Source: a virus
Length of the DNA stretch: 59,165 nt
Strand: one strand, 5' to 3'
Virus record (IMG/VR): IMGVR_UViG_3300046838_000032
Location: 1 to 59,165 of that record
The notes beneath the pieces are model-generated. The model did not search any database. It saw only the letters and a list, made by a program, of their open reading frames with translations, and had not been told where the DNA came from. The position numbers and the translations under genes were made by a program. Of the stretch, positions 1 through 50,349 are shown piece by piece; position 1 is the first letter of the stretch, and each line of letters begins with the position of its first letter.

Positions 1-127
1 CGAGCGGTACGGTGCAGCAGTTTACCTTTACGATCTTCTCGGCAGATTTGCAAAGCCCGCTCCTCGTCTTGCCGTCTACCTATATTCTGAAGTGCGCGCC
101 GCACAATGCGGAGTCGTTTGACGTTAT
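1..127. repeat. Terminal direct repeat identical to 59039..59165 (circular-contig overlap)
   Basis: Bases 1-127 match 59039-59165 base for base on reading. 127 nt is a typical assembler k-mer overlap. Unique length is about 59038 bp. Confidence 0.95.
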
Positions 128-6445: not shown

Positions 6446-6517
6446 CGATCTTTGGTCAGCAGCAGGCGGCCACTCGGCCGCTTTCGTTCTGCACCAATCA
6501 GTAAAGGAAATGTACGC

Positions 6518-7480: not shown

Positions 7481-7502
7481 CGCAAACGAAAGGGAAAAGA
7501 CC

Positions 7503-8006: not shown

Positions 8007-9461
8007 GTGCCCATCTGGCGGTCTGATAACCGCCAGCCGCCGTACCAACCTCAACCGCCGCGTAGGCAGGTTCCGTTCGTTGCGGGGGCGACAACGGCCT
8101 ATCGCGATGCTACGGCGCGTATCCGGGTCGCTGTCCTTGCGTTCAAGGATGCCACGGTTCGAGTCAGAGTTGGGATCACCAACTACAAAGACGCGACGGC
8201 TCGAGTTCGTGTCGGCATCACGAACTGGAAAGACGCGACGGTCCGTGCTCGCGTTGCTGCAACAGCCTACAAAGACGCAACCGCGAGAATCAGGGCAGCG
8301 GCTACCGCCTACAAAGACGCTCGTGTCCGCATCTTCCCTGCGATTCTCGGACTCAAGGATGCCACGGTCCGAGCGCGCGTCGCGGCGACAGCCTACAAGG
8401 ACGCTCGGGTCCGGGTCTATCCGGCCATCTTGGCGTACCGCGATGCGACCGTCAGACTTAGGGCGGCCGCGACGGCATGGAAAGACGCCACTGCTAGAGT
8501 CCGCGTTGCTGCGCTGGCATTCAAGGATGCCACGGTCAGGCTCAATGTTGCAGGTGCCAGTTACAAGGACGCGACCGTCAGGGTTCGCGCCGCGGTACGT
8601 GCCTACAAAGACGCGACCGTTCGAGTCTACGCAGCCATCCTTGGGTTCAAGGATGCGACAGCCCGCATTCGAGTTAGTGCGACTGCATGGCGCGACGCCA
8701 CAGCGCGCGCTCGTGTTGCGGCCACGGCATACCGCGATGCAACCGCTCGGATCTATCCGGCGATCAAGGCGTACCGCGATGCCACGGTCAGGATTCGAGC
8801 AGCGGCTACGGCGTGGAAGGACGCGACTGCTCGGGTTCGCGTTGCAGCTCTCGCGTTCAAAGACGCGACGGTCAGGATCTCCGTCCTTGCGCCAGGCGCC
8901 GGCTATAAGGATGCGAGTTGGCGAGTCAGGGTCGCTGTTCGAGCCTACAAGGATGCGACGGTTCGCATCTACGCGGCGATCAAGAACTACAAAGACGCCA
9001 CGGCAAGAGTCCGTGTTGCAGCGACGAACTGGCGCGATGCTGTCGCTCGGGTTCGGGTTGCGGCCACGGCATACAAGGACTCAACGGTCCGCGCGCGCGT
9101 CGGCATCCTTGCTTACCAGAATGCGACGGTTCGCATTCGCACCGTCATCGGCAACTGGAAGGATGCCACTGCCAGAGTAAGGGTAGCCGCGACGACATAC
9201 CGCGATGCGACCTCGCGCGTCTACGTCGGCATCCGAGCGTTCAAGGATGCCACGGTTCGCATCCGCGTTCAGCAGGCCGGATTCTTCAAGGACGTAACAG
9301 TCAGGTTCAGGATTGCGGCGACCACGAACCGAGACTCGACGATCCGTATCTTCGTCACGGCGACGCCTCAGAGAGACGCACGGATTACGGCTGGTGAGCC
9401 GTTCTCGCATTGGACACTAGGCGAGCCATTCCAGCACTGGACTGTCGGCCTGCCGGCCTGA
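8007..9461 (+). CDS. Repeat protein with about thirty tandem 14-aa units (x-[YWF]-[KR]-D-A-T-[VA]-R-[VI]-R-[VA]-A-A-T), putative fibre shaft
   Basis: 484 aa. The GTG start follows GAGGAG. The periodic sequence is visible directly. The C-terminus carries a duplicated GEPFxHWTxG. Confidence 0.75.
   Translation: MPIWRSDNRQPPYQPQPPRRQVPFVAGATTAYRDATARIRVAVLAFKDATVRVRVGITNYKDATARVRVGITNWKDATVRARVAATAYKDATARIRAAATAYKDARVRIFPAILGLKDATVRARVAATAYKDARVRVYPAILAYRDATVRLRAAATAWKDATARVRVAALAFKDATVRLNVAGASYKDATVRVRAAVRAYKDATVRVYAAILGFKDATARIRVSATAWRDATARARVAATAYRDATARIYPAIKAYRDATVRIRAAATAWKDATARVRVAALAFKDATVRISVLAPGAGYKDASWRVRVAVRAYKDATVRIYAAIKNYKDATARVRVAATNWRDAVARVRVAATAYKDSTVRARVGILAYQNATVRIRTVIGNWKDATARVRVAATTYRDATSRVYVGIRAFKDATVRIRVQQAGFFKDVTVRFRIAATTNRDSTIRIFVTATPQRDARITAGEPFSHWTLGEPFQHWTVGLPA
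8097..9365 (+). repeat. Coding tandem repeat with a 42-nt period, about 30 copies, and an 8-unit higher-order repeat
   Basis: Counted from the translation. Units 9-16 parallel units 17-24. Unit lengths are 13-17 aa at a few junctions. Confidence 0.85.
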
Positions 9462-12360: not shown

Positions 12361-12389
12361 AAAGGGGGCCTCGTCAAGAGGCCCCCTTT
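12361..12389 (-). terminator. Perfect 12-bp hairpin (AAAGGGGGCCTC/GAGGCCCCCTTT), terminator-like on both strands
   Basis: Read directly from the sequence. On the minus strand it is followed by TTTGTGTTTG. Confidence 0.6.
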
Positions 12390-12671: not shown

Positions 12672-13211
12672 CTAAGCGGCCCAGAGCTGATGCTGCCAGC
12701 GGTCCCAGGAATGAGAGACGGCGCCTGATCCGGGGAACAGATCGACGAGCGTGTCGCCCTGTTTCAGGTTGAGCACTTGGAACAGCCAGAAGCAGAATGT
12801 CTCGGGCTTCTGTCCTTTCGTCTGGACTCGGCTTTGCGAGCGCATGACGGCGTTGGCGCGGACCCAATCGCGAATAGTGTCTTGCTTACGCGTACGCTTG
12901 CGGCCACCTCGCCAAATGACCGGCTCCCAGGCGTAGCCGACGCCGACGCCTGGCTTCATGACAAACCAGTCTTTGACCCAGACTCCGACGCGAACGTCGC
13001 TAGCGCCGAAGGCGTGACAAGTGTTGAGTAGCGTGGGCAGTGTTGGTGCGCTCAACGAGAGCGCCCAGCCATCGGGATACTCAGTCACGAGTCGACGCAC
13101 CAGCCCGATGTGGTCGACCTCGCCGGCATAGTCGGGGTGGTCGCCGTAGATAGCCTTGGCGCGCCCGATGTAGGGAGGATCGGCGTAGGCCACGGTCAGC
13201 GGTTCTGGCAC
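12672..13211 (-). CDS. DNA N6-adenine methyltransferase (DPPY motif, beta-type order)
   Basis: N-terminal AYADPPYIG and C-terminal KPETFCFWL...LVDLFPGSGA (FxGxG). GTG start. Confidence 0.8.
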   Translation of the reverse strand: MPEPLTVAYADPPYIGRAKAIYGDHPDYAGEVDHIGLVRRLVTEYPDGWALSLSAPTLPTLLNTCHAFGASDVRVGVWVKDWFVMKPGVGVGYAWEPVIWRGGRKRTRKQDTIRDWVRANAVMRSQSRVQTKGQKPETFCFWLFQVLNLKQGDTLVDLFPGSGAVSHSWDRWQHQLWAA

Positions 13212-13856: not shown

Positions 13857-15410
13857 TTAGTCAGCCATCGCGTGCCCACGGGTCCGGTGCATGTTCTTGA
13901 CGTTCTGCGCGCGCGTCATTGGCTCTCCATGCCCAGGATAAACACAGTGCCGCGGACACGTTCTACGATGATCCCAATCCATGATTCTGCCTGTCTCGTC
14001 CACAGGAAACGGCCTACCATTGATCACTTCCCAGACCACCTGATGCGCTGGCCGGTTGTTCGCTGGCCTACCATCGCCATACCCCCAGTACACGACGCCG
14101 TACCCGTCTTTGTTCTTCGTCCCCTTCCACAACCAGCACTCGCCTTGCGTCCGGTCGATCCTATCTAGCAACTCTTGCACCCGCTTCTCAGGCATCGGCA
14201 GCGCTGGCACTACTACCTCTGACCTGATCTCACGAACTATCGTCCTACGCCTCTTATACGACCCCTCTGCTGGTACTCCGTACTCCGTGGGATCGGGCAG
14301 GACCAACTCTCGCCGCTGGTACTTCGGCAGCCGCAACTTTGTGCGCGTCGGGCGATGCTCAGGTGAGCGTACCCAGGCGTAACCAGTCGGCATGTTCTCG
14401 AGTTGCACGTCTGCCGGCTCGATGCGCAAGTGCTCCGCAGCGAATGCAACCTCGCGCTTTGACTCTTGCGCGAAGCTCACCCACACCTTGACGTTGTTAA
14501 CGACTTCCTCAGGAAGCTTCGCCATGTTCTGCGTCAACACCACGAGCGGACAGCCACGGTCGCGCCCAGCTTGCGCGAGCGCGTTCATCTCTACCTGACG
14601 CGAACCGGCCTGTCCGGCTTCCTCGACGACAAGCAGGAAGTTGCCAACCTCTTGTGCAACACGGCGAGCTTGGACGAGCGCGATGCCACCGATGATCGGT
14701 GCGTCCTCTGGTGACAAGAATCGGTTCGGCAGGATCAACACTTTCTCGTTGTTACGCATGCATTCAGACAGATCCATGTCTGCGCCGAGCGATGGTCCGA
14801 GTGACATGGCGATGCGCTCGAAACGATTAGCCCATGTGCGGCATGCGCGCGTGTCGTCTGGATTGGCGCCGTTCCGTTTGAGAGCTGACACGAGCGCGTC
14901 GAGTGTGCGCGGCTGTTGTGCCTCGTCCAGATCGTCGAGCGCGTGCCATAGGCGCATCTGTGCGAGTCCACGGTTGTAGCCGGTGTCTGCATCGCTGCGC
15001 GCAAAGCCAGCGGTTAGCGCTTCGCTGACGACCTGTGCGCTGCCAGAGAGAATGTCCCAGCCGATGTCGCCACCGGGTTGCCAGATCGTCCATCCCTGTG
15101 ACTCGAACAGGTCACGGATCGGCCGGCTGTTGTCGAATGCCACGACGAGCGCGCGCGGTACGGCTTGCAGTAACGGCACAACGGCCGTGCTTTTGCCCGT
15201 GCCGGACATGCCCGCAACGACAGCATGGATCGTGTGCGATCCGCCGCGCAGATCAACTGTGAGCCTGCCGAGTTTCCACGGGATGCGCGGGCCCGGACGC
15301 AGTATGCGCCGCGTGACGATGAGCGTCAGCAACAGCGCGAGCAGCACTGGCAGCAGCGGGTTGACGTGCTCAAACGTCGGATGCTCGAACGCGCGCGACA
15401 GCGACTGCAC
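13857..15410 (-). CDS. VirD4/TraG-type type IV coupling ATPase fused to a C-terminal HNH endonuclease domain
   Basis: N-terminal TM segment. Walker A VAGMSGTGKST and Walker B-like FLLVVEEAGQ. The C-terminus reads ECWLWKG..DGYG...AHQVVWE...DHRRTCPRHCVYPGH...QNVKN. The GTG start is 2 nt after the VirB4-like stop. Confidence 0.72.
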   Translation of the reverse strand: MQSLSRAFEHPTFEHVNPLLPVLLALLLTLIVTRRILRPGPRIPWKLGRLTVDLRGGSHTIHAVVAGMSGTGKSTAVVPLLQAVPRALVVAFDNSRPIRDLFESQGWTIWQPGGDIGWDILSGSAQVVSEALTAGFARSDADTGYNRGLAQMRLWHALDDLDEAQQPRTLDALVSALKRNGANPDDTRACRTWANRFERIAMSLGPSLGADMDLSECMRNNEKVLILPNRFLSPEDAPIIGGIALVQARRVAQEVGNFLLVVEEAGQAGSRQVEMNALAQAGRDRGCPLVVLTQNMAKLPEEVVNNVKVWVSFAQESKREVAFAAEHLRIEPADVQLENMPTGYAWVRSPEHRPTRTKLRLPKYQRRELVLPDPTEYGVPAEGSYKRRRTIVREIRSEVVVPALPMPEKRVQELLDRIDRTQGECWLWKGTKNKDGYGVVYWGYGDGRPANNRPAHQVVWEVINGRPFPVDETGRIMDWDHRRTCPRHCVYPGHGEPMTRAQNVKNMHRTRGHAMAD

Positions 15411-15412
15411 GG

Positions 15413-17791
15413 CTAGTCAGCCGCCAGCGACGGCTGTTCTAGTGCAGGACGAGTTTCCAGAACATCTTGATCGCGATCAAGCCGATGATCACCGTCCCGA
15501 CCGAGGACGCCGGCAATTGCGCTAACCACAGGATCACCGCTAGTGGCGTCACGTGTTCCATCAACAGCACTGTACTCCTCGATTGGTCCGGCGTCATCTT
15601 CCACGCCGTCCGTGTTTGCCATCTGGTATTCGTCCGGCGAATGCTCCACCTCGAACACGATGCGCGTGAGTCCCGCCTCGAGCATCGCTTGCCCCACGCC
15701 GAGCCGCGAGATGATCTCGACTTGCTCATCCGTCCAGCGCAATCGTTTCTGTACATCCGATATCTCCGAGGATGCCTGCATACCGAAGAATTTCGTCCCG
15801 CACAGAGATTGCACGGTCGCGCCGAGACTCGATGAAAGCGCATCCATCGGCCGTTGCGTCATAAAGAAACTGGCGATCTGCAAATGTCGGCCGCGGCGAA
15901 CCATATCCTCAACCTCTGACTCGGCCTCGTGGTCACCGATGACCGACCACATCTCATCGACAATCACCACGCGGCGCGTTCGCCACTTCGCTGCGCGTTT
16001 GAAGATCGCACGCTTGAACGCCACGGTCGCACGGCACCGCTGCTCAGTGTTCAGTTCCGCAAGGTTGAATGCGATTACCGGTGGGCACGCCCGACCGGCC
16101 GCGACATCGACAAACACTGTCGCCATGTCGTGCTCGTATGTGTCGCGGCGGATCTTCCGCACCTCGCCACCGCAGTAGGTAGCCCACCGACCGTACTCGC
16201 CGTTCTGGTCTTCCTCTGCCTGGTCAATGGCGAACATCTCGGTTGCCAGTCCGGCGAAGAACATGCGCGACGTCAATACCTTGACGGAGAAGCCTTTACC
16301 GGCGCCGCTGGTAGCGTAGATCGCGACGTTCGGATTCGGGATCATTGGCTTTGCCCAGGGTGACCACATCACGACGCGCTTCCCGTACAGACTGCGGCCC
16401 CACGGCACGCCACCCTTGAGCCCGAGTTCGGATGCTGACCACAAGTACGCGCGCGAGACTGACGACGTGTCAACACGGTGAGAGCGCGCGAGCAATCGAT
16501 GCTCAAGCACGCCGGCCGTCAACTGCTGCGCGTCGGCTTGTTCCCATCGTAGCGGCGCCGCGATCGCGCCAGATTCTTCGACGATCTTTTCTACGGCACG
16601 CCCGGCGGCCACCGCTTCATTGCGCGTCTTGCCATGAGCCTGAAGGTAGATCGCGACTTCGAACACATGCTCGGAGTTCGTCTCGAGCGCGTCGAGCATC
16701 CCGTCGACCTGCTTGATAGCCAGCTTCCGTTGCCTTGTCTGCTTCGTTGTCTCCATCTTGAATAACTGATCGCGCAGCGACTTCTGTACGGCAGCCGTGT
16801 CTTGCTTACGAATGAACTGGTGTACATCGATAGCCGACTCACCATCAGACAACGATGCGAGGAAATCGACGGGTACCGACGCCGGCCACTTCTGGTAGGC
16901 GTACGTAGCGTGCCAGGTGCCATCGACACCGATAGCGTCAGACTCGATATGCATGACACGTGGGCCGATGTGCTTGCGCGCATCCGCGTGCGACCAGCCG
17001 CGTTGTAGAGCCTCTATGAGCCGCTCGTCCGACAACCGCTCGCTCCGTAAACTCGCGCGCTGTAGCGCAGCATCCACGGCCGCGGCGTAGCGCTCGAGTG
17101 TCGTGTCATCCGATGCGCGGATCGCAATGAACCGCTGTCGCTGCATAACGCGCGCAGCGGCGAACTTTGCGCCAAGCCATTGCGCCGTCAACAATCCTGC
17201 AGGATTCGCATGCTTCCGCATCGCGCCGAGTATGTCGGTGAGGTCAACCGGCGTCGCGCGTACGAACGTTTGAATCGGACACGGGATACCGTCGAGGAAT
17301 GCCGCCCAGCGCGCTCGCTCAGCCTCGCGAGCTGCATCTGACGCCAGGCGTAGCGATACCGCAGGCACGCTCCACATCGCCACACTCTGACCGTGGACGT
17401 GCGCGACATCGGTCGATACGGCTGGTGAGCCGATAAACGCATAGGCATCCGCGCCGGCGTACATGCGAGGCCGCGCGCGGAAGTGAAAGAACGCGACCGC
17501 GCCATGTTCCACCGGAGGCTCGAATGGCAGCGCAACGATGAGCGCCGCGATTAGGACGAGCGCTGCGCCGATGACTGGCACGAGCGGTAATGCACCGGCT
17601 GCCGTTCCCTCGCCAATAGCCGGCACTGTATCGCGCACCATATCGAAGAGTGATGGCCCAACCGGCGGCAGACTGACCGCGACGGCCGCCGCCACGAGCA
17701 CGCCGCCACAAAGGACAACACCCTGGCGGATCGTCCAGTTGTCGATGCCGTCAGGGGTGTCGAGGTGCGTGGGAACTGTGTGGCGGCTCAT
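15413..17791 (-). CDS. PrgI/VirB3-like membrane N-terminus fused to a VirB4/TrsE-type conjugation ATPase
   Basis: 792 aa. The N-terminus reads LDTPDGIDNWTIRQGVV followed by TM helices. Walker A is IYATSGAGKGFS and Walker B is RVVIVDEMWS. The overall layout is typical of monoderm VirB4 proteins. Confidence 0.78.
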   Translation of the reverse strand: MSRHTVPTHLDTPDGIDNWTIRQGVVLCGGVLVAAAVAVSLPPVGPSLFDMVRDTVPAIGEGTAAGALPLVPVIGAALVLIAALIVALPFEPPVEHGAVAFFHFRARPRMYAGADAYAFIGSPAVSTDVAHVHGQSVAMWSVPAVSLRLASDAAREAERARWAAFLDGIPCPIQTFVRATPVDLTDILGAMRKHANPAGLLTAQWLGAKFAAARVMQRQRFIAIRASDDTTLERYAAAVDAALQRASLRSERLSDERLIEALQRGWSHADARKHIGPRVMHIESDAIGVDGTWHATYAYQKWPASVPVDFLASLSDGESAIDVHQFIRKQDTAAVQKSLRDQLFKMETTKQTRQRKLAIKQVDGMLDALETNSEHVFEVAIYLQAHGKTRNEAVAAGRAVEKIVEESGAIAAPLRWEQADAQQLTAGVLEHRLLARSHRVDTSSVSRAYLWSASELGLKGGVPWGRSLYGKRVVMWSPWAKPMIPNPNVAIYATSGAGKGFSVKVLTSRMFFAGLATEMFAIDQAEEDQNGEYGRWATYCGGEVRKIRRDTYEHDMATVFVDVAAGRACPPVIAFNLAELNTEQRCRATVAFKRAIFKRAAKWRTRRVVIVDEMWSVIGDHEAESEVEDMVRRGRHLQIASFFMTQRPMDALSSSLGATVQSLCGTKFFGMQASSEISDVQKRLRWTDEQVEIISRLGVGQAMLEAGLTRIVFEVEHSPDEYQMANTDGVEDDAGPIEEYSAVDGTRDATSGDPVVSAIAGVLGRDGDHRLDRDQDVLETRPALEQPSLAAD

Positions 17792-17794
17792 AGG

Positions 17795-18037
17795 CTATCC
17801 GCCGCCGCCGAGTCCTTGCTGAAAGAATCCGCCGATGACCGAGAATGAGAATAAGAACAGCGTGCCGAGAATCATGGACACGATGTACGACCGAACAAAA
17901 TGGCCGACGCCTTGGCCGCCGATATTGGTGAGCAGAATGACGCCCATGATGACCGTGACGAGTGCCATCAAGCCTGCGCCAACGTGTGAGATTTCTACGG
18001 CTAGCGCGAGAAGTTGCGAGCCGATTTGTGCGCCCAA
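17795..18037 (-). CDS. Small two-TM protein, VirB2/TrbC pilin-like candidate
   Basis: TTG 18037 lies 6 nt after AGGAGG. 80 aa with two hydrophobic helices and a Gly-rich C-terminus. It sits between the TrbL-like and VirB4-like genes. Confidence 0.45.
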   Translation of the reverse strand: MGAQIGSQLLALAVEISHVGAGLMALVTVIMGVILLTNIGGQGVGHFVRSYIVSMILGTLFLFSFSVIGGFFQQGLGGGG

Positions 18038-18048
18038 AGTGTTTCCTC

Positions 18049-18924
18049 CTAACCAACGACGATCGCCGCGGCAGCGACCGTCTGCTTGACGATTGACATG
18101 AGGCCGCCCCCTTTGATGTCGGCTCCGATGGTTGCCATGTCGTATGCGAGCAGTAAGACGCCGATGCTGAGCGCCACGCTTCCTATCGTTCCTCCCATTG
18201 TTCCGATGAGCACGGCGGCGAGCTTCAAGCACAACGCCACCATGACTTGCCCGACGAGTAGGCCAGCGTACGATCGAACCCAGTTCGACCAGTAACTATG
18301 CGCCTGCGGCACCGTCCAGCAATACGCGGCGAGCGGACCAACGCACATGAGCACGCCGAGATAGATGAGTCGGTAGCCCATGCGCACGAGCAACCGCAGC
18401 CCGAGCACGATCCACACGACGATCAGAATTGCAGTGATCCAGGGGTCGAACCCTGCGTTCTGCGGTCCTGGCATGTTCGCATCGCTGATGGCATCGCTAG
18501 CCGTGTTCGCGAGGGTGATCGACGTCGCGTAGACGAACGGCATACTCGTCGCGAAGGCGATACCGAGGAACGTGCGCGCAGACCACTCGCCGAGTTTCCA
18601 CGTCCAGCCGAAGTATTCGCGACCGATGCACGCACAACCGGCAAGCACGACGGTCAGCGCAACCACGCCAGCCGTCGCGCCACGCCAGTCGCGGTATATG
18701 TCGCTGATGCCGCCGAGGTTGTACGACAGCCCTGGCGGTGTGCGAGTAACGAAGTTGACATCCGAGTTCTGCACGCTGTTAGCGATTTGGTCCCAGAGAA
18801 CATCCCCCTTATCCGTGATGATGTGCGCGACCGCATCCGTCGCAGCCTGCATGAGTTGCGGGAACGCGTTCATGAACGCCGAGATGAGCGCCGCTGCCCA
18901 TGAGCCAGGGTCGAAGTCAGGCAC
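18049..18924 (-). CDS. Polytopic membrane protein, TrbL/VirB6-like
   Basis: About 291 aa from GTG 18924, with an 8-nt overlap onto the P60 stop. It has at least 6 hydrophobic segments. Both its position and its architecture match VirB6 analogues. Confidence 0.6.
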   Translation of the reverse strand: MPDFDPGSWAAALISAFMNAFPQLMQAATDAVAHIITDKGDVLWDQIANSVQNSDVNFVTRTPPGLSYNLGGISDIYRDWRGATAGVVALTVVLAGCACIGREYFGWTWKLGEWSARTFLGIAFATSMPFVYATSITLANTASDAISDANMPGPQNAGFDPWITAILIVVWIVLGLRLLVRMGYRLIYLGVLMCVGPLAAYCWTVPQAHSYWSNWVRSYAGLLVGQVMVALCLKLAAVLIGTMGGTIGSVALSIGVLLLAYDMATIGADIKGGGLMSIVKQTVAAAAIVVG

Positions 18925-19459
18925 CGATGCGTCCGTAGCCGACGAAATGTGCGCGCCAATATGCCGTGTTGAGGTTCTGTCGGCCGAGTGTCGGCTCAAT
19001 GGCGGACACCATCACGCCATCACCGACGTAGATCCCGACGTGGCTGATGAAGTCCGGCCGGCTGTCGTACGTTCCAAAGAAGAACACGAGGTCACCTGGT
19101 TCTGGTGCCGCGACCTTCTGCGCGACGTTGTATTGCCCCTGCGCTGTCCGCGGCAGATTCACGCCGAGCTGCGCGAAGACTGCCCTTGTGAATCCTGAGC
19201 AGTCGACTGCGCCGACGACATTGCCGCCGAATAGGTAACGCGACCCAAACCACGGGGCAATCAGCGAGTCAAGCGATGCGTTTTCTCCGAGTGCTGGCCC
19301 GATTATCGGCACCGTTGCCTCTGTCGGCACGTGGCCTGGTGGTGAACGCACCGAGCCCAGGAACGTCGCGACCACGAGCGCGAGCGGCGCAACGACCGCG
19401 ACTGATGTGGCGATCAGGATGATGACGATGCCGCCGACTAGCGAGCCGACGACTCTCAC
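18917..19459 (-). CDS. Membrane-anchored NlpC/P60 (C40) peptidoglycan hydrolase
   Basis: N-terminal TM segment. Catalytic motifs VDCSGFTRAVF and ISHVGIYVGDG. Confidence 0.85.
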   Translation of the reverse strand: MRVVGSLVGGIVIILIATSVAVVAPLALVVATFLGSVRSPPGHVPTEATVPIIGPALGENASLDSLIAPWFGSRYLFGGNVVGAVDCSGFTRAVFAQLGVNLPRTAQGQYNVAQKVAAPEPGDLVFFFGTYDSRPDFISHVGIYVGDGVMVSAIEPTLGRQNLNTAYWRAHFVGYGRIGA

Positions 19460-20322
19460 GCGGCTGCCTCAAGGTCCGCCTGTGGTTGTTCGGCCGGTGG
19501 CAGCGCAACCCAGTAAGACTCAGGCGACGGCGGTAGCGGCGGCCAAGGTGGGAGGTGGATGTTCCAACCCTGCTCTTGTGCGGCGGCGCGCTTCGGTTTT
19601 GGTGTAGGAGCAGCGGTCGGCGTCGTTGTCGGCTGCTGTGTCGGTGCCGTGGTAGCCGTGCGCGTTGCGGTGGGCACGGGCGTGTGCGTCGCAAGCATGG
19701 TCGGCGTTGCTGTGCGCGTTGGGATAGGCGTTGCGGTCGCTGTTGTCTCCGGCACGTCGGTCGGCTCGCTTGTCGGTGGCGACACGTAGACGTAGACGAT
19801 CTGCGGCTGCGCTGGTGCGGGCGCGCGTGGTGCGGTTGTCGGTTGTCGAGTCGGTGCCGGTCGCGGCGTGCTAGTCGACACCGACGTTGGCTCAGGCGTG
19901 ATCGCCGCGAGCCAGTCGAGATATGCCTGCCATTCCTCACACGAGATCGGCGTACCGTCGAGGTGGTAGATCACGTCGGTGATGGGGTTGCCGTCGTCAT
20001 CGAACTGCTGGTTGCCAGCGTCGTCGTAGACCGGCCCCGTAGCCCAGCACACCGGCTCGGGCATTGGGGATGCCGTAGGTACCGACTCATCCGAGGCACT
20101 AGAGATGAGAGGTGTGGAAGTCGGTGCCGGTGTGCTGGTGGCCGGAGCGAGCGTCGCCACGGCGAGCGGTGTAGGCGTATCGCAATACCCTGCTGGGTAA
20201 TTCGCCCCGTGCTTAGCGAGGCAGTTGGCGATCTCTTCATGTTGGTGTTGCTGCTGATAGAGCGACGGTGTCGGGTTGGTAGCAGCGAGTGTCAGTGCCA
20301 GACCGACCACGGCAGCGATCAC
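19456..20322 (-). CDS. Membrane-anchored/secreted Pro/Thr-rich protein
   Basis: 288 aa with a hydrophobic N-terminus and long PT-rich tracts around a Cys-containing domain. The stop overlaps the P60 start. Confidence 0.6.
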   Translation of the reverse strand: MIAAVVGLALTLAATNPTPSLYQQQHQHEEIANCLAKHGANYPAGYCDTPTPLAVATLAPATSTPAPTSTPLISSASDESVPTASPMPEPVCWATGPVYDDAGNQQFDDDGNPITDVIYHLDGTPISCEEWQAYLDWLAAITPEPTSVSTSTPRPAPTRQPTTAPRAPAPAQPQIVYVYVSPPTSEPTDVPETTATATPIPTRTATPTMLATHTPVPTATRTATTAPTQQPTTTPTAAPTPKPKRAAAQEQGWNIHLPPWPPLPPSPESYWVALPPAEQPQADLEAAA

Positions 20323-20357: not shown

Positions 20358-20537
20358 CTAGGCGGCTCGTGCTCGCTTCACTCGGATCGGCGTCGATGGA
20401 TCGTTGCGCGCCCGCTGCGCGCGGAGTGCCTGCTCGAGCAGGGCCGAAGCTTGCTGCTCAGCACTCCGCCATTGCTGTTCAGCGAGTTCATTGAGCGTCG
20501 GCTCGTCGGTGTCACGGATCGTAACGGTTAGGTCCAC
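20358..20537 (-). CDS. Ribbon-helix-helix-like small protein (below the ORF-track cutoff)
   Basis: 59 aa read by hand: VDLTVTIRDTDEPTLNELAEQQWRSAEQQASALLEQAL... GTG start with AGGAGG 12 nt upstream. Confidence 0.4.
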   Translation of the reverse strand: MDLTVTIRDTDEPTLNELAEQQWRSAEQQASALLEQALRAQRARNDPSTPIRVKRARAA

Positions 20538-20629
20538 TTAGCCGTTTGACCTCCTACGTAACCCAATATAGCCCATCGTTACATACGTGTCTAGACCTAT
20601 ATGTCCCTCTGTGGTACGTTGGGTAGGAT
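20538..20629. promoter_or_regulatory. AT-richer divergent control region between the RHH (-) and HTH (+) genes
   Basis: It contains TTGACC, TATAGC and TATATG hexamers, three TACGT cores, and an imperfect inverted repeat TACGTAAC / GTTACATA. Confidence 0.4.
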
Positions 20630-20809
20630 TTGGACGAGCAGTGGCTAACTGTGAGCGAGGTCGCTCAGGTCATGCGCGTCAAACCTAAGACTGTCCGACG
20701 CTGGATTAACCTCGGCACGATCAAGCGTGCGACGATGGTCAACCGGCGAGCTGGCTGGCTGATCCCGCGCTCGGAAGTCGACCGGCTATTGCTCGAGAAC
20801 CAGCGTTAG
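20630..20809 (+). CDS. Excisionase/MerR-type helix-turn-helix protein (below the ORF-track cutoff)
   Basis: Read by hand: (M)DEQWLTVSEVAQVMRVKPKTVRRWINLGTIKRATMVNRRAGWLIPRSEVDRLLLENQR. The start is TTG 20630 or GTG 20651. Confidence 0.55.
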   Translation: MDEQWLTVSEVAQVMRVKPKTVRRWINLGTIKRATMVNRRAGWLIPRSEVDRLLLENQR

Positions 20810-20938: not shown

Positions 20939-20997
20939 CCCGCCGCGTCAGGGGATTCGAGCCCTTCGCTGAGGCTCGCAGGAGACGACGCGGCGGG
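20939..20997 (-). other. tRNA-like mini-structure: an 11-bp closing stem enclosing a T-arm-like hairpin
   Basis: CCCGCCGCGTC (20939-49) pairs with GACGCGGCGGG (20987-97). On the minus strand AAGGG-CTCGAAT-CCCCT abuts the 3' stem strand, as in a tRNA. The structure is too short (59 nt) to be a tRNA. Confidence 0.3.
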
Positions 20998-21102: not shown

Positions 21103-22062
21103 CTACGTACTGAAGCCCGGAAGTTGTACGGGCGGCGGTGGAACGTCCTGCTCAGGCTCGGGCGTTGGTGGCATAGGTGTGGGTGTAGGTTGCTCCACAG
21201 TTGGTACAGGTGTACTCAGTTGCTCTGGCACCCCAACGCTCGCGACAGGCGTAGTAAGCGTCGGTGGCAACGTGCCAGTGGGTGCGGGCGCCAGCGTAGG
21301 CACGGATGAAGGCGTAGCTGTCATCGTGGATGTTGGTAAAGCGGCCTGAGTCGGGATTGCGCATACATCACCTGCCTTATCGCGGATATACGTCTCGCCC
21401 CATGTGAAGTTCTCCTTGTGCGGCAGCCCGCCTGGCACATCCTTGGACTGAACGGCCATAGGGACGTACTGCCCGCTGAAGTTGCCGTCCTCGTAGACGC
21501 ACAGCAGAACGAAGCGGGTATTACTGCCAGTCCCGCCACGAGATGATGTCGCCGCATTCGGTGCACTCGAGCCGCCAGATGTAGACGGCGGGGGACTCGC
21601 TATCGGCTGCGGTGAACTCGCACTCGGCGTTGGCGTCGGCACTCCCAGGATGTTTATGGACGGCGTGATAGCAACCGTCGGTGTAGTGGGTGAGGGTGAA
21701 CTCACTATGGGCGGTGTGGGCACCGCGGGGGTCGACGACGAGGGTGGACTTGTGGGCGTAGGTGGTATTGGCGTACTCGTTGGCGGGGTGCTGGTGGGCA
21801 CGCTCGTTGGGGTGAATGATGGTGGTACCTCCGTAGCCGTTGGTGGCACAGGCGTATACGTCGGCGTGTTCGTCGGGTAATGCTTCGGCGTAGGTGTCGG
21901 CGTGGGATGCAGGACGCAATAGCCGGCCTGCTCATTCTCTTGTGTGTCGGGATAGCCAGGCTGGCAGTCCCAGGCGAAAGTAACGGACGGTGCGAGCGTC
22001 CAGGCGAGTAGCAGGATCACACTCCCCAGTGCGACTGCGGCAGGTTTCACGTTCGTTAGCAT
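21103..22062 (-). CDS. Secreted Pro/Thr-rich surface protein
   Basis: 319 aa. The signal-like N-terminus reads AAVALGSVILLLAWTLAPSVTFA. Two long PT/S tracts flank a roughly 70-aa globular segment. Confidence 0.65.
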   Translation of the reverse strand: MLTNVKPAAVALGSVILLLAWTLAPSVTFAWDCQPGYPDTQENEQAGYCVLHPTPTPTPKHYPTNTPTYTPVPPTATEVPPSFTPTSVPTSTPPTSTPIPPTPTSPPSSSTPAVPTPPIVSSPSPTTPTVAITPSINILGVPTPTPSASSPQPIASPPPSTSGGSSAPNAATSSRGGTGSNTRFVLLCVYEDGNFSGQYVPMAVQSKDVPGGLPHKENFTWGETYIRDKAGDVCAIPTQAALPTSTMTATPSSVPTLAPAPTGTLPPTLTTPVASVGVPEQLSTPVPTVEQPTPTPMPPTPEPEQDVPPPPVQLPGFST

Positions 22063-22472: not shown

Positions 22473-23600
22473 TCATCGAGCGATTCCGGCGACACCGCCA
22501 CCCCTGACTGTTTTCAGGATAGGACGCGCGTTCGATCCTGTGTGCCAGCGACTTGCCAGCGACGGTAGTTCCTGGGTCGCTGCAAGATCGAGGTCGGCAC
22601 CTCGGGTGTACACCCCGATCATGGCGTGGTTGTTCTTGGCCCATCCCATGCGCGCGGAGAGCACGTCGATCTGGCTCGGGTCTGCCTGATATCGCTCTGT
22701 GAAATTGGCACGACGAAAGGCATGTGGTGGCCGGTTCTCAACGCCAGCTTTATCGCAGATGCGTTTCAGCACATAGCGCAACTGATCTGGTGTGAGTGGC
22801 GTGCCGCGGATCGACGTCCAGAGGTATGCGTGGTGCTCGGCTCGAGCGAGGGTCGAGCGCATGTCGATCCATTCGGCAAGCCGTCGCAACGTCTGTCCGC
22901 CGCGCGGGTCTTCAGTATCACGGATGCTGAGCGTGCGCTGCTTGCCACCCTTGCCGCGCCGGACCATGATGCGTCCACCATCGAGATCGACGTCGGCGAC
23001 GGACATGCTGCAACACTCGTCAGCTCGGATGCCCGCGTCAGAAAGAACGTAGAGTAACGCCAGGTCGCGTGAGATCGAGATCCGTGGCGCTTGTGTCGTC
23101 TCGTCCATCAGTCGGCGCAAGACAGCATGCTCGAGCGCGCGGAACTCTTCTGGCCGGATGCGCGGCTGGATACGCTCGGGCACCTCTGGCGGTCTGAGGT
23201 GCGTCAGGTCAGGCACGGACACACCCTGAGCCAGTAGCCAGCGAGCCAGTGCGCGCGCCGAGAACGCCACGCCGTTAGCTTTGGCCTGCCCGCCCTTGTA
23301 GTTCCGTGCGCCTTCTTTGGTGAGGCACGTGCGGAACGCCTTGCGGAGCAGATCAGGCGTGAGTTCGGCGACGTAGTAAGCGCGCTGCGTTGCAGCGAAT
23401 GCCGCGAGCCATTCGAGATGACCGCGGTATGTCCTGACCGTCGCTGCGGACGGCACGCGCGGCCCCTCAAACGGCCACGCTTCCAGAAACGAGGAGATAG
23501 CGTCATCGAGCCGCAACCTCCTGCCCTTTCCGGGTCTAGATACCTTCCTTGCGGCGTCACCGGCTCCTAATTCGGCACTGCCGCTATCGGCCTCAGACAA
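22473..23600 (-). CDS. int: Tyrosine recombinase / phage integrase
   Basis: GKGGKQRTL, HAFRRANFT and a C-terminal IGVYTRG (catalytic Tyr context). TTG start. Confidence 0.85.
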   Translation of the reverse strand: MSEADSGSAELGAGDAARKVSRPGKGRRLRLDDAISSFLEAWPFEGPRVPSAATVRTYRGHLEWLAAFAATQRAYYVAELTPDLLRKAFRTCLTKEGARNYKGGQAKANGVAFSARALARWLLAQGVSVPDLTHLRPPEVPERIQPRIRPEEFRALEHAVLRRLMDETTQAPRISISRDLALLYVLSDAGIRADECCSMSVADVDLDGGRIMVRRGKGGKQRTLSIRDTEDPRGGQTLRRLAEWIDMRSTLARAEHHAYLWTSIRGTPLTPDQLRYVLKRICDKAGVENRPPHAFRRANFTERYQADPSQIDVLSARMGWAKNNHAMIGVYTRGADLDLAATQELPSLASRWHTGSNARPILKTVRGGGVAGIAR

Positions 23601-34852: not shown

Positions 34853-34856
34853 CCCT

Positions 34857-37550: not shown

Positions 37551-37965
37551 CACGTTTGACCGGATTAGACATCCTCAGAAAAGGGCATTCCTCGCCGCCT
37601 ACCGGCAGTCGGGCAACATCCGAGCATCGACTGAGGCTGCGAAGATCACACGGCAGACGTACTACAACTGGTGCGAGAAGGACCTCGTGTTCGCTGCGGC
37701 GGCACAGACCGCGAAGGAAGAGTACGGCGATCTGCTCGAGGCCAAGCTCGCGCAGATGGCGCTACGCCAGGACAACGTCACGGCGCTGATCGTCGGCCTC
37801 AAAATGATCGGCCGGTTTGTCGATAAGACACGAACCGAAGTCTCAGGGCCAAATGGAAACGCTATCGAGATCAACACCGCGCAGGGAACTCTCGCCGATC
37901 GAGTTGCTGGCATTGCTGCCCGATTCGGCACAGAAGGAGTTCTACGCGAGCCTGTCGAAGGCTGA
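37543..37965 (+). CDS. terS: Terminase small subunit
   Basis: KRAFLAAYRQSGNIRASTEAAKITRQTYYNWCEKDLVF is a typical HTH TerS N-terminus. The gene lies immediately upstream of terL. Confidence 0.7.
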   Translation: MASTFDRIRHPQKRAFLAAYRQSGNIRASTEAAKITRQTYYNWCEKDLVFAAAAQTAKEEYGDLLEAKLAQMALRQDNVTALIVGLKMIGRFVDKTRTEVSGPNGNAIEINTAQGTLADRVAGIAARFGTEGVLREPVEG

Positions 37966-39175
37966 GCAATCTCTCTGGCCTTATGACTGGCCGTTCCATG
38001 CACGTCCGTCGCAACGCGAGCCGCAAGGCGACTGGCGTACGTGGCTCATCCTGGCAGGGCGCGGGTTCGGGAAAACGCGCACTGGCGCGGAGTGGGTACG
38101 CCAAAGTGTTGCGCGCTACCCAATCGTCAACGTTATCGCGCCAACAGCCGACGATGCCCGCGACATTATGGTTGAAGGTGAGTCTGGAATCCTGGCGATC
38201 TGCCCTCCAGATGAGCGGCCAGTCTACCGAGCTGCCTACCGTCGCCTCGAGTGGCCGAACGGCGCCCGAACGCTGATCTTCACCGCTGACGAGCCAGAAC
38301 GGCTCCGCGGCAAACAGCACATGCGCCTCTGGGCCGACGAACTCGCGGCGTGGCGCTACCCCGAAGCGTGGGATCAGGCGATGTTTGGGCTCAGGCTCGG
38401 TGACGATCCTCGAGCCGTGGTGACCACGACGCCGAAGCCGACAGAGATCGTCAGGCGTCTCGTCAGCGATCCCACGACGTTTATCACACGCGGCTCGACA
38501 TACGACAACCGAGGCAACCTGGCGCCAGCGTTCTTCGATGCCATCATCAAGCGCTACGAGGGTACTCGCATCGGCCGGCAAGAACTCATGGCAGAGATCC
38601 TCGACGACGTTGAGGGCGCGCTCTGGACACGCCAGATGATCGATAACAACCGAGTGACGAGTCATCCTGACCTGGTCCGTGTCGGTGTTGGCGTCGACCC
38701 GTCAGGTGGCGACAAAGATGGCAACGCCGAGCAAGGCATCATCGTCGTTGGCTGGGGCGTTGATCAGCACGGCTACGTACTCGCCGACTACAGTTGCAAG
38801 CTCTCGCCGGATGGTTGGGGCCGGCGCGTCGTCCAGGCTTATCAGGAGCATGCTGCTGACCATGTGTACGTCGAGCGGAACTTCGGAGGTGATATGGCGA
38901 TTGCGACGATTGAGACTGCGTCGAACGCGCTCAACACTTTCGTGCCGATCACGGCGGTTACCGCGAGTCGCGGCAAGGCGGTGCGAGCTGAGCCGGTGGC
39001 TGCGCTCTACGAACAGGGACGTATGCATCATGTGGGCTCGTTCCCTGAACTCGAAGATCAGTTGTGTGTCTGGGTGCCAGGATTGAGTGCGACGAGTCCT
39101 GACCGACTGGACGCTCTCGTGTGGGCTGTGAGTGAGGTCATGTTCGATCAGCCGCTCAGCGTGTACACGATCTGA
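37853..39175 (+). CDS. terL: Terminase large subunit (start uncertain)
   Basis: WPYDWPFHARPSQREP..WRTWLILAGRGFGKTRTGAEW (Walker A), with a nuclease half downstream. The ORF is open from 37817. Confidence 0.85.
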   Translation: METLSRSTPRRELSPIELLALLPDSAQKEFYASLSKAEQSLWPYDWPFHARPSQREPQGDWRTWLILAGRGFGKTRTGAEWVRQSVARYPIVNVIAPTADDARDIMVEGESGILAICPPDERPVYRAAYRRLEWPNGARTLIFTADEPERLRGKQHMRLWADELAAWRYPEAWDQAMFGLRLGDDPRAVVTTTPKPTEIVRRLVSDPTTFITRGSTYDNRGNLAPAFFDAIIKRYEGTRIGRQELMAEILDDVEGALWTRQMIDNNRVTSHPDLVRVGVGVDPSGGDKDGNAEQGIIVVGWGVDQHGYVLADYSCKLSPDGWGRRVVQAYQEHAADHVYVERNFGGDMAIATIETASNALNTFVPITAVTASRGKAVRAEPVAALYEQGRMHHVGSFPELEDQLCVWVPGLSATSPDRLDALVWAVSEVMFDQPLSVYTI

Positions 39176-46965: not shown

Positions 46966-46976
46966 GAGACCGTTAC

Positions 46977-50328: not shown

Positions 50329-50349
50329 GATAGAGAGGAACATCCGCCC

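Follow-up and report, generated by a model that had tools for sequence, protein, structure and literature searches.

Introduction

For a mobile element, conjugation and spread as a virus are regarded as two alternative ways of life (PMC12282955). Characterised conjugative type IV secretion systems (T4SSs) that move single-stranded DNA all rely on a relaxase recruited by the coupling protein (T4CP), and the T4CP gene usually lies beside the relaxase gene, with congruent trees for the two (PMC12857230). Archaeal ICEs carry pairs of VirB4 and VirD4 (PMC6563490). Transfer without a relaxase is also described. Thermus ICETh1 needs none: DNA donation there depends on TdtA, a membrane-associated translocase of the FtsK/HerA family, and is efficient only with a NurA-like nuclease and the restriction enzyme Tth111II, both encoded in the same operon, which also has a methylase gene further downstream (PMC5365140). 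As far as that source describes it, relaxase-independent transfer in Streptomyces is the work of a single FtsK-like pump, TraB, whose C-terminal HTH recognises clt repeats (PMC5365140).

Our literature search returned no report of T4CP-HNH fusions or of a phage-borne T4SS. A comprehensive 2025 review of T4SSs leaves a C-terminal HNH architecture unmentioned, with 0 occurrences of “nuclease” (PMC12857230), and T4SS, relaxase and coupling protein go unmentioned in the paper on the “conjugative prophage” Phi1207.3.

Here we describe a phage locus in which a coupling-type ATPase ends in an HNH nuclease domain. The window is the whole stretch of DNA analysed, 59,165 nucleotides of the IMG/VR virus record IMGVR_UViG_3300046838_000032. 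Like ICETh1, the locus combines a membrane translocase with a nuclease and has no recognisable relaxase. Unlike the fusion, the ICETh1 nucleases are a separate NurA-family protein and a type IIG restriction enzyme; ICETh1 is moreover an ICE, has no VirB4-like partner, and its TdtA is HerA-like with no reported transmembrane (TM) anchor. The likeness to TraB, one of description only, would lie in relaxase-independent transfer by a single pump, whereas the C-terminal domain of TraB binds DNA and does not cut it, and TraB has no VirB4/T4SS channel.

Results

The window is a complete phage genome

The ends of the window form a perfect 127-bp direct repeat (1..127 = 59039-59165), and a separate assembly recovered this element as a contig of 59,068 bp. 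Terminal repeat and second assembly together indicate a complete circular genome of 59,038 bp. This is the genome of a temperate siphovirus-like phage, with an HK97-like head module (Phage_portal, Peptidase_S78 and Phage_capsid) and a separate lysis cassette at 10.6-11.9 kb, made of a GH25-like protein and small TM proteins. Pfam recovered both the integrase (Phage_integrase) and the RepA-like protein (AAA_25) that a preliminary description of this DNA had named. Two genes outside the locus are needed below:

22473..23600, minus strand: tyrosine integrase (Pfam Phage_integrase, 3.6e-20)
37817..39175, plus strand: large terminase (TerL), Terminase_6N/6C (Pfam, 8.4e-24 and 6e-12)

The module that contains the fusion gene sits within the accessory region that separates the lysis cassette from the integrase, and it recurs in related phage contigs of ~55-78 kb. 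With regard to the host, there is a hint from one short Chloroflexi MAG contig.

A single gene encodes the ATPase and the HNH domain

The fusion gene was called as an open reading frame of 517 aa with a GTG start, with the following parts:

13857..15410, minus strand: fusion gene (TM helix, FtsK/HerA/VirD4-superfamily ATPase, linker and HNH nuclease)
15303..15368, minus strand: N-terminal TM helix, about aa 15-36 (the model has a helix at 19-36, and hydropathy peaks at aa 15-33)
14337..15281, minus strand: P-loop ATPase domain, aa 44-358 (invariant Walker residues, Foldseek, secondary structure)
15189-15212, minus strand: Walker A, GMSGTGKS, aa 67-74, within the ATPase domain
14610-14636, minus strand: Walker B, LLVVEEAGQ, aa 259-267, within the ATPase domain
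14205..14336, minus strand: flexible linker, aa 359-402, about 35 aa of it flexible (pLDDT <50 for aa 367-402)
13875..14204, minus strand: HNH_3-type (His-Me finger) domain, aa 403-512 (PHROG, PF13392 in homologues, invariant residues, BFVD)

The entire reading frame lies in one stop-free segment (13860-15416), so it contains no frameshift, and an independent gene call on the source contig gave the same 517-aa product. Together with the conservation of the fusion, kept by 36 homologues and a wider clade, this rules out two genes joined by a frameshift, and the ATPase-HNH protein of the preliminary description stands as one gene. The AF2 model of the protein has a pLDDT of 82. Basic residues come after the TM helix, and the remainder of the protein is therefore predicted to be cytoplasmic; hydropathy and model agree on an N-terminal membrane anchor with a cytoplasmic ATPase, as in T4CPs. 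The linker ends in a conserved L-P-x-P motif, of which L404, P405 and P407 are invariant or nearly so.

The HNH domain keeps its catalytic core

A Pfam search did not detect HNH in the window protein itself. Family-level matches come from PHROG HNH families, which cover aa 389-512 at E 1.5e-17 and 2.6e-15, and from the homologues: 5 of 12 homologous C-terminal domains match Pfam HNH_3 (PF13392, best E 1e-15), and PF13392 hits are also precomputed for several homologues. In the HNH core, H481, C485, C489, H494 and N503 show no variation across 21 sequences, down to 33% identity, and D480 hardly varies. The model of the isolated domain (pLDDT 88) has a beta-beta-alpha arrangement at domain positions 76-79, 93-96 and 98-107; in full-length numbering the modelled strands are 478-481 and 495-498, followed by helix 500-511. 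Alignment and model thus both point to a beta-beta-alpha-metal core with catalytic His and metal-binding Asn. The domain is also the most conserved segment of the fusion protein (0.64). A degenerate HNH is ruled out by the invariant core and by this conservation, and the HNH_3-type C-terminal end proposed earlier, together with its catalytic residues, was confirmed on alignment.

As for known relatives, the domain belongs to the same family as free-standing phage HNH_3 endonucleases (PF13392, PHROG and actinophage HNH proteins in BFVD), and the BFVD fold matches to such endonucleases range from E 2.5e-5 to 1e-4. A PDB fold search with the isolated domain gave no significant match; I-HmuI is among the top-ranked ones (0.56, with I-PpoI at 0.37 and PacI at 4.3). 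I-HmuI-type enzymes nick one strand. A PDB sequence search with a profile of the domain gave zero matches. Unlike free-standing HNH_3 endonucleases and HK97 gp74, the HNH is never free-standing here; it is tethered to a membrane ATPase, far from the terminase. No second HNH of this type was found in any reading frame of the genome.

The ATPase belongs to the FtsK/HerA/VirD4 superfamily

The ATPase domain has the nucleotide-binding fold of the FtsK/HerA superfamily with intact Walker A and B. Its invariant residues are G72 and K73 (Walker A), E263 and E264 (Walker B), A265 and Q267. The best full-length fold match by Foldseek is TrwB (E 2-4e-11, ~410 columns, TMt 0.57-0.60), and HerA (2e-11) and VirB4 (4.7e-10) are about equal to it in score. 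The model shows a helical insertion at ~aa 125-219.

None of the T4CP family profiles (T4SS-DNA_transf, TraG-D_C, TrwB_AAD_bind or TcpA-type FtsK_SpoIIIE) matched the fusion significantly; TrwB_AAD_bind reached E 0.24 and FtsK_SpoIIIE E 0.18. From NCBIfam, HerA_antiphage (9e-4) was returned and nothing else. The earlier “VirD4-like” label therefore holds at superfamily level, for the Walker motifs, the TM helix and the TrwB fold, and does not extend to a T4CP family match. Its motifs and model identify the protein as a DNA-pumping ATPase of the hexamer type, anchored in the membrane and belonging to the FtsK/HerA/VirD4 superfamily.

Like VirD4/TrwB coupling proteins, the fusion has an N-terminal anchor, a superfamily ATPase and a VirB4-like neighbour, and its modelled helical insertion may correspond to the all-alpha domain of T4CPs. 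It differs from them in its single TM helix, its C-terminal HNH, the lack of a partner relaxase, the tailed phage that encodes it and the missing T4CP profile match.

The fusion gene closes a VirB4-containing membrane module

The fusion is the last large gene of a putative operon, whose order is Pro/Thr-rich protein, NlpC/P60, polytopic protein, small 2-TM protein, VirB4-like ATPase and ATPase-HNH. The other members, and the gene downstream of the fusion, are:

19456..20322, minus strand: Pro/Thr-rich protein, 288 aa, first gene of the putative operon
18917..19459, minus strand: NlpC/P60 peptidoglycan endopeptidase, 180 aa, membrane-anchored (Pfam NLPC_P60 4e-22, NCBIfam, TM anchor)
18049..18924, minus strand: polytopic membrane protein of 291-316 aa with 5 or more TM helices; candidate VirB6-like protein, judged by topology and position only
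17795..18037, minus strand: small 80-aa protein with two TM helices (independent gene call, hydropathy), VirB2/VirB3-like in size and topology only
15413..17791, minus strand: VirB4-like ATPase of 792 aa, whose two N-terminal TM helices form a VirB3-like part (NCBIfam, Pfam, PDB)
12672..13211, minus strand: small DNA-methyltransferase-like protein with a DPPY motif (Pfam MethyltransfD12 E 0.0014, below cutoff; phrog_56 7e-4)

The stop codon of the VirB4-like gene is 2 nt upstream of the start codon of the fusion. The VirB4-like protein matches the NCBIfam models conju_CD1110 (3.1e-21), VirB4_CagE (1.2e-10) and TraC (2e-7), all short of the curated full-length cutoffs, as well as Pfam AAA_10 above cutoff and, in the PDB, VirB4 4ag5 (3.8e-5) and TrwK (1.2e-4). 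Its Walker A reads GAGKGF/Y and not GK[ST]. In 8 of the 10 related loci L001-L010, and also in L011, the fusion is immediately preceded by a VirB4-like gene; in L001 and L002 BLAST did not detect one. A search for relatives of the protein among isolated phages and plasmids gave only weak matches, in unannotated gut-virome fragments.

The remaining members recur to varying degrees. Homologues of the polytopic protein, which matches phrog_3750, a family without an assigned function, lie beside the fusion in L001, L002, L005, L007 and L008, and NlpC/P60 recurs in L003, L004, L005 and L007. The 80-aa protein has a homologue in L008, with similar small TM reading frames in L003. The Pro/Thr-rich protein has a partial homologue in L008 and no family match in Pfam, NCBIfam or PHROGs. 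The VirB6- and VirB3-like candidates fit in topology and position without a family-level match, no protein of the module matched a VirB8-like family in Pfam, and an adhesin was likewise not identified. The methyltransferase-like gene has no homologue in L001-L010.

The fusion is thus encoded with a VirB4-family ATPase and other candidate mating-pair-formation genes, as expected of a T4CP, and the anchored NlpC/P60, distinct from the lysis cassette, would supply the channel-dedicated peptidoglycan hydrolase of a monoderm T4SS. Comparison with monoderm MPF_FA/FATA systems (Tn916/ICEBs1-like) shows the same parts, namely a CD1110-type VirB4, a 2-TM protein, a polytopic protein, NlpC/P60 and a coupling-type ATPase; we take Orf14-17/21 of Tn916 and ConD/E/G/Q/CwlT of ICEBs1 to be the comparable component set. 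Unlike those systems, the module has no MOB_T/Rep_trans or other relaxase, no recognised VirB8 and another gene order, and it sits inside a virion-producing phage. By this analogy we infer that the module would be a minimal monoderm-type T4SS-like DNA conduit, with the fusion as its putative coupling protein.

The fusion is conserved across its clade

A total of 36 homologues of similar length (500-600 aa) were found, and the clade also includes distant members of 640-760 aa, which Pfam cannot annotate. Among 1.84 billion representative proteins, an HNH-like C-terminal motif is present in ~41-43 of the 46 ATPase relatives, and the few clade members without such an end look truncated or frameshifted. 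To the question of how often such fusions occur, raised in the preliminary description, the answer is that the fusion is conserved across the whole ATPase clade. Sequence comparison places it as ancestral there. The HNH subtype does not follow ATPase relatedness (rho = 0.02), which indicates that subtypes have been shuffled independently of the ATPase.

No relatives of the fusion were found among isolated phages or plasmids. A recent duplication of the neighbouring VirB4-like ATPase was also considered as its origin and is rejected, since the two proteins share no BLAST similarity.

No relaxase or oriT was recognised

Relaxase families were not found by Pfam (E<=0.01) in the 81 called reading frames, nor in the remaining reading frames of at least 150 aa in all six frames, and no relaxase emerged when the early proteins without annotation were searched against NCBIfam, PHROGs and the PDB. 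The earlier statement that the 59 kb hold no recognisable one can therefore be extended to the complete genome and to profile searches, as negative evidence in a genome with four proteins of at least 200 aa that carry no annotation. A hidden relaxase in these early genes (27230-28249, 31415-32017, 33584-34852 and 34815-35453) was set aside after Pfam, PHROGs, NCBIfam and PDB returned no matches; for two of the four, PADLOC gave no match either. In L001, L003 and L005, no relaxase family lies within 10 kb of the fusion.

The related loci have no conserved non-coding, oriT-like site in common, and all the DNA similarity they share is coding. The gap at 20.3-21.1 kb contains an HTH_17 Xis-like reading frame and a promoter-like AT-rich stretch, with no obvious oriT. 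Neither the cognate relaxase that a T4CP has nearby nor the relaxase and oriT of a monoderm T4SS was thus found at this locus. Given that a T4CP gene usually adjoins a relaxase gene, a nuclease fused to the T4CP would occupy the usual place of the relaxase.

Proposed function and alternatives

We tentatively favour, with a probability of roughly 0.4, a relaxase-free “cut-and-pump” export of DNA through the T4SS-like channel, analogous to TdtA/NurA of Thermus. The tethered HNH would nick or break DNA of the phage or the host at the cytoplasmic opening of the ATPase ring, and this cut would stand in for the usual relaxase steps of nick, covalent attachment and recruitment by the coupling protein. 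The free DNA end would be threaded and pumped out via the VirB4-energised channel, which could give the prophage a contact-dependent route besides virions. In the recipient, the DNA would depend on recombination or integration to become circular again. It is plausible that the cut needed for transfer comes from the fused HNH, and such a role fits the anatomy of the protein and its VirB4 neighbourhood. An HNH hydrolase is incapable of covalent pilot-and-religate chemistry, so replacing the relaxase can only mean making the end.

Several observations weigh against export. The re-forming of a cut genome in the recipient is left unexplained by HNH chemistry. The fusion has no T4CP profile match, and HerA and VirB4 folds score like TrwB. 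The Walker A of the VirB4-like protein is odd, L001 and L002 have no BLAST-detectable VirB4-like gene, and there is no conserved target site. The likeness to VirB6 and VirB3 is by topology only, and neither a VirB8-like protein nor an adhesin was identified. Independent shuffling of HNH subtypes is also typical of conflict or defence modules, and the module occupies a place that in temperate phages usually holds genes for lysogenic conversion or exclusion.

These last two points also speak for an exclusion or defence function encoded by the prophage. In such a lysogenic-conversion module, the anchored translocase-nuclease and its VirB4-like partner would capture and degrade incoming foreign DNA at the membrane, whether of superinfecting phages or of conjugative origin, a reading that we consider possible if doubtful. 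It agrees with the position of the module, which has the lysis cassette on one side and the integrase/repressor on the other and does not share the strand of the late genes. It also agrees with the exchange of HNH subtypes irrespective of the ATPase, the pattern that an arms race would produce. PDB fold matches include the defence complexes HerA-SIR2, HerA-DUF4297 and TdpAB, and HerA is among the top folds; like these and the HerA-NurA repair complex, the fusion pairs a pump with a nuclease, but they are soluble, two-protein assemblies with other effector folds, whereas the fusion is one membrane-anchored polypeptide with an HNH, beside VirB4. The weak PADLOC matches (mad8 1.1e-8, HerA 4e-4) and NCBIfam HerA_antiphage point to defence as well, yet the former are superfamily-level and are shared equally by the VirB4-like protein. 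No full-length match with partner genes was obtained for HerA-effector anti-phage systems or MADS (mad8 is partial, HerA models give 4e-4 to 2e-3), no known system is complete, and membership of a known defence system was rejected on these grounds. The methyltransferase-like gene downstream is a further point for this reading, but it is not conserved in related loci, and the constant partners of the fusion are parts of an envelope-spanning channel, none of which a cytoplasmic restriction system would need. The same anatomy that suggests export would also serve a T4SS-like machine of other use, such as DNA release into the medium, DNA uptake or cell-to-cell spread along a filament, with the HNH fragmenting or processing the DNA; present data do not separate the two, and we regard this reading as unlikely. 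To our knowledge, T4SSs for DNA uptake typically have no coupling protein. There are precedents for other uses. DNA release and DNA uptake are both functions to which T4SSs have been adapted (PMC12857230), and Thermus transjugation combines the outward pushing of DNA with its later uptake by competence (PMC5365140).

The two remaining explanations concern the HNH alone. A selfish HNH of the homing-endonuclease type, added at the 3' end of the ATPase gene and without a role in ATPase function, would account for a domain typical of free-standing phage homing endonucleases and for the exchange of subtypes between lineages. It is very unlikely, given that presence/absence polymorphism is essentially missing (~41-43 of 46 relatives keep the HNH-like end), that the catalytic core is invariant in the most conserved part of the protein, and that a conserved LPxP linker motif precedes it. 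The preliminary description had offered instead a cos-cleavage helper of the terminase, similar to HK97 gp74, that makes the genome ends and is linked to a transfer ATPase. The HK97-like head module and the absence of another HNH of this type in any frame agree with it, and we nevertheless find it extremely improbable. HNH-dependent phages of the HK97 kind use a TerL of the Terminase_1 type, and the TerL here is of the Terminase_6N/6C type. The two proteins also differ in distribution: the TerL family has at least 8000 homologues vs 36 for the fusion, and a single contig among those of the 120 nearest TerLs bears the fusion, with TerL 72% and fusion 89% identical. HK97 gp74 is a small free-standing protein beside the terminase, while the HNH here forms one protein with a membrane ATPase of 400 aa and is encoded 22 kb away from TerL, on the opposite strand, and in most related loci the fusion follows the VirB4-like gene and not terminase genes.

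Whichever use applies, a conserved clade joins a coupling-type ATPase to a hydrolytic nuclease, in virion-building genomes without a recognisable relaxase. If DNA is moved by export, this would be a third way to start intercellular DNA transfer, after relaxase-dependent single-stranded transfer and TraB-type pumping of double-stranded DNA, and it would mean that a contact-dependent route can be encoded by a phage itself. The fuller picture, of temperate tailed phages (~55-78 kb, probably of Chloroflexota-like soil hosts) that would spread both as virions and through a relaxase-free channel to a neighbour cell, with the HNH making the DNA end, is rather doubtful. If true, type IV secretion would have a new way of processing its DNA, and these phages would be true hybrids of phage and conjugative element. 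If foreign DNA is excluded instead, the clade would represent a new defence architecture that is made from T4SS parts and acts at the membrane.

Signals flanking the module

Lastly, the best match to a sigma-70-like promoter, a weak signal, lies in the AT-rich gap upstream of the module, in a region where counts of promoter-like sites are not above shuffle expectation. A weak terminator-like hairpin lies downstream.

20565..20593, minus strand: sigma-70-like promoter match, TAGACA-17-TATATT, 10/12
12361..12389, minus strand: terminator-like hairpin with a 12-bp stem

A single gene for a membrane-anchored ATPase with an HNH domain

The fusion studied here, a TM helix, ATPase, linker and HNH nuclease in one protein of 517 aa, is encoded on the minus strand at 13857..15410, where the preliminary description had placed it. 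The ORF lies inside one stop-free segment (13860-15416), and a gene caller predicts the same 517-aa product on the public copy of the contig. It is therefore one gene, and not two joined by a sequencing frameshift, as that description had considered.

The P-loop matches from Pfam, at aa 52-98, all stayed below threshold, and Pfam did not detect HNH in the fusion, even when the C-terminal 124 aa were scanned alone. With PHROGs, aa 389-512 matched HNH endonuclease families (E 1.5e-17 and 2.6e-15). A homology search returned 36 homologous proteins, 34-100% identical and nearly all of 500-610 aa. PF13392 (HNH_3) matches are precomputed for several fusion homologues, and this family was also matched by 5 of 12 isolated homologous C-terminal domains (best E 1e-15), bearing out the HNH_3-type domain first proposed by eye. 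An alignment of 21 of the 36 homologues answers the question of catalytic residues: invariant positions are G72 and K73 in Walker A, E263, E264, A265 and Q267 in Walker B, and H481, C485, C489, H494 and N503 in the HNH core, with D480 nearly so. Judged by these residues, the tethered HNH looks intact.

The AlphaFold2 model of the fusion (mean pLDDT 82) has four parts:

aa 19-36, TM helix
aa 44-358, P-loop domain, with a helical insertion at about 125-219
aa 367-402, disordered linker
C-terminus, compact domain in the beta-beta-alpha arrangement expected of HNH

In the PDB, the ATPase fold matches HerA (2e-11), TrwB (2-4e-11) and VirB4 (4.7e-10) about equally. TrwB, the coupling protein of R388, aligns over about 410 columns with a TMt of 0.57-0.60. 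The superfamily membership of the ATPase is secure. The earlier term “VirD4-like” holds at that level, but no T4CP HMM was matched by the fusion, and the term is best taken as the reading with the best coverage, though not an exclusive one.

Among predicted viral structures, the C-terminal domain resembles free-standing actinophage HNH endonucleases (E 2.5e-5 to 1e-4). Modelled separately it reaches a pLDDT of 88. A PDB fold search with this isolated model gave no significant match, the top-ranked folds being the His-Me finger nucleases I-PpoI (E 0.37) and I-HmuI (E 0.56), and a PDB search with the sequence profile of the domain gave no match.

Genome and gene neighbourhood

The first and last 127 bp of the window form a perfect direct repeat (1-127 = 59039-59165), and an independent assembly, the 59,068-bp Logan public copy, represents the same circle but overlaps less at its ends. 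The genome is therefore complete and circular, with 59,038 bp. By its Pfam annotation it is that of a temperate, siphovirus-like phage, with the following genes in the window:

head and packaging: Terminase_6N/6C large terminase, Phage_portal, Peptidase_S78, Phage_capsid
further virion genes: head-completion and tail-completion proteins, tape measure
lysogeny and regulation: tyrosine integrase, several HTH regulators
DNA-related: several DNA methyltransferases, an AAA_25 (RepA/DnaB-like) protein
10.6-11.9 kb: separate lysis cassette, in which small membrane proteins come after a GH25-like protein

Between the lysis cassette and the integrase runs a leftward series of genes, of which the fusion is the final large one. 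In order of transcription, this module contains:

Pro/Thr-rich protein
membrane-anchored NlpC/P60 endopeptidase
polytopic membrane protein, at least 5 TM helices
80-aa protein with 2 TM helices
15413-17791 (-), VirB4-like ATPase, 792 aa, two N-terminal TM helices
13857-15410 (-), fusion, starting 2 nt past the VirB4-like stop codon

The VirB4-like assignment comes from NCBIfam (conju_CD1110, 3.1e-21; VirB4_CagE, 1.2e-10) and from PDB matches to VirB4 and TrwK. In 8 of the 10 related loci, the gene immediately preceding the fusion is VirB4-like, and the polytopic membrane protein and NlpC/P60 hydrolase recur in several of the 10. The order of big ATPase, small ORF and fusion is kept even around a distant 710-aa member. 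The related loci are phage-like (integrase, ParB, tape measure) and lie on contigs of 55-78 kb, four of which belong to IMG/VR.

The Walker A motif of the VirB4-like protein is SGAGKGF, and GAGKGY in its counterpart at 7542-9755 of L003, one of the related phage loci, with Gly after Lys instead of the usual Ser/Thr. Since it is conserved between distant members, this variant is probably a family trait and not decay.

The preliminary description had recognised no relaxase, and family searches support this. We looked for Relaxase, MobA_MobL, TrwC, Mob_Pre, Rep_trans, Replic_Relax and other families, and found none at E<=0.01 in the 81 called ORFs of the window or in the remaining six-frame ORFs of at least 150 aa. 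For the larger unannotated proteins, NCBIfam, PHROGs and PDB searches were negative, and four of at least 200 aa stay unannotated; a PADLOC scan of two of the larger ones was also negative.

Spread of the fusion and exchange of its HNH domain

When 1.84 billion representative proteins were searched with a profile, 51 matched at E<=1e-30, roughly 25-30 of them full-length two-domain proteins. In longer relatives of 640-760 aa, the match is confined to the ATPase part and the tails have no Pfam domain; read directly, each tail terminates in a DH-C...C...H...N motif. As for how often such ATPase-HNH fusions occur in databases, a motif scan with inspection of its misses indicates that, of 46 representatives matching the ATPase, about 41-43 have a C-terminus that is HNH-like. 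The others appear truncated or frameshifted. The family itself is rare: of 185,579 reference species a single one gave a match, on a 3.5-kb contig from a Chloroflexi MAG of soil, and there was none in 50,697 phage records or 72,556 plasmids.

HNH is the most conserved segment, with a mean majority-residue fraction of 0.64, the nucleotide-binding domain reaching 0.56-0.59. A surprise was that pairwise identity in the ATPase domain does not correlate with that in the HNH domain across the family (Spearman 0.02 in the alignment of fusion homologues). Some homologues have only 26-29% ATPase identity to the window copy, yet 60-73% in the HNH, and others have 81-82% in the ATPase and merely 42-51% in the HNH. 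This lack of correlation indicates that HNH is always retained but its subtype is exchanged between lineages.

Possible roles

The fusion is a pumping ATPase anchored in the membrane, with the HNH on a flexible tether and a VirB4-like ATPase as its genetic partner. The module also has the membrane components and the wall hydrolase that one expects in a minimal monoderm T4SS, and no relaxase is recognisable in the phage. We give a probability of about 0.4 to a relaxase-free export of DNA (“cut-and-pump”), in which a DNA conduit would have the fusion as its coupling protein, and the end of the DNA would be made by the HNH where the ATPase ring opens. T4CP genes normally adjoin relaxase genes and co-evolve with them (PMC12857230), so the fused nuclease occupies the usual site of the DNA-processing enzyme. 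In Thermus ICETh1, DNA is donated without a relaxase through TdtA, a membrane-associated translocase of the FtsK/HerA family, with assistance from a NurA-like nuclease and a restriction enzyme encoded in the same operon (PMC5365140), and archaeal conjugative elements carry VirB4+VirD4 pairs (PMC6563490). These precedents make cut-and-pump export reasonable, and a second, conjugation-like transmission route is conceivable for these phages.

Against cut-and-pump export, several T4SS parts are assigned from topology alone, and the module is placed at the classic lysogenic-conversion position. To our knowledge, an HNH hydrolase is unable to pilot or religate DNA like a relaxase. Shuffling of HNH subtypes is also expected of a conflict system, and a role of the module in DNA exclusion or defence, though less likely, is the main rival reading. 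What probability remains is shared by other T4SS-like uses, a selfish HNH and help in packaging. The last had been proposed earlier, with the HNH as cos-cleavage helper of the terminase, and is not supported. The large terminase is of the Terminase_6 type, and its family has at least 8000 homologues at E<=1e-20, with over 120 clusters at or above 57% identity, against 36 for the fusion in the same database. Only one contig among the 120 nearest TerLs bears the fusion (56,438 bp; TerL 72% identical, fusion 89%). In the great majority of cases, then, a terminase of this type does its work with no fusion present. Furthermore, the HNH is tethered to the membrane, lies 22 kb from TerL on the opposite strand, and travels with VirB4-like genes.

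The literature that we searched describes neither a coupling-type ATPase with a fused HNH nor a tailed phage with a VirB4/T4CP module. The “conjugative prophage” Phi1207.3 earns that name only in an operational sense, and such genes go unmentioned in its paper. T4CP-like ATPases, HNH_3 and VirB4 are already known kinds of part, as is the pump-plus-nuclease theme (HerA-NurA, TdtA-NurA).

Other features of the window

A short HTH_17/excisionase-like ORF (20630-20809, +; PF12728 precomputed on the source contig) is divergent from the promoter-like AT-rich region of the module (20530-20630). The nicking substrates proposed in the preliminary description overlap this regulatory region. Between the Xis-like ORF and the leftward ORF that comes next, the non-coding DNA contains a perfect 11-nt inverted repeat (20939-20997; CCCGCCGCGTC / GACGCGGCGGG), whose 37-nt loop includes a GGATTCGAGCC stretch recalling a tRNA T-arm; ARAGORN found no tRNA in the window. 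The repeat might relate to attP. At 21103-22062 (-), the longest ORF is a Pro/Thr-rich protein of 319 aa with a signal-like N-terminus, and the public gene call instead places two ORFs, of 132 and 70 aa, in a different frame, leaving the coding assignment uncertain.

Four DNA-methyltransferase-like genes are present in this 59-kb phage (12672-13211, 25886-26677, 29245-30489 and 36369-37550): one encodes a small protein with a DPPY motif, one a C5 methylase, and two encode N6_N4 methylases. The N6_N4 methylase at 36369-37550, just upstream of the terminase, has an N-terminal region of about 190 aa without Pfam annotation. The TerL of the window is uninterrupted. One of its close homologues (P0192, 587 aa) is about 160 aa longer and has extra precomputed PF14890, PF14623 and PF13403; the additional part could be an inserted element.

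A GT2 glycosyltransferase (42634-43383, -) lies between portal and prohead protease, and a 507-aa Methyltransf_23 protein (46815-48338, +) between the capsid and head-tail connector genes. Enzymes are unusual at these places in the structural module; the two could serve to modify the virion. In the head-tail region, 49969-50328 and 50350-50709 are tandem copies of a 119-aa gene, with 77% DNA identity over 300 nt; a longer minus-strand ORF overlapping the first copy (49711-50343) is probably spurious.

In the tail region, an 80-nt direct repeat (6368-6447 and 7403-7482, 84% identical) encodes the identical C-terminal ~25 aa (QDTPELRGRPFGLRGQVQMHQLLAQ) of the proteins at 6005-6445 and 6782-7480, which may be a shared attachment or assembly module. 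Finally, the 484-aa protein at 8007-9461 is almost wholly repetitive: a unit of 14 aa (42 nt), roughly A-T-A-Y-K-D-A-T-V-R-V-R-V, occurs about 30 times in it. Its DNA resembles the region of an 825-aa ORF in two of the related loci (L003/L004), which suggests a shared repetitive tail or fibre-like protein.
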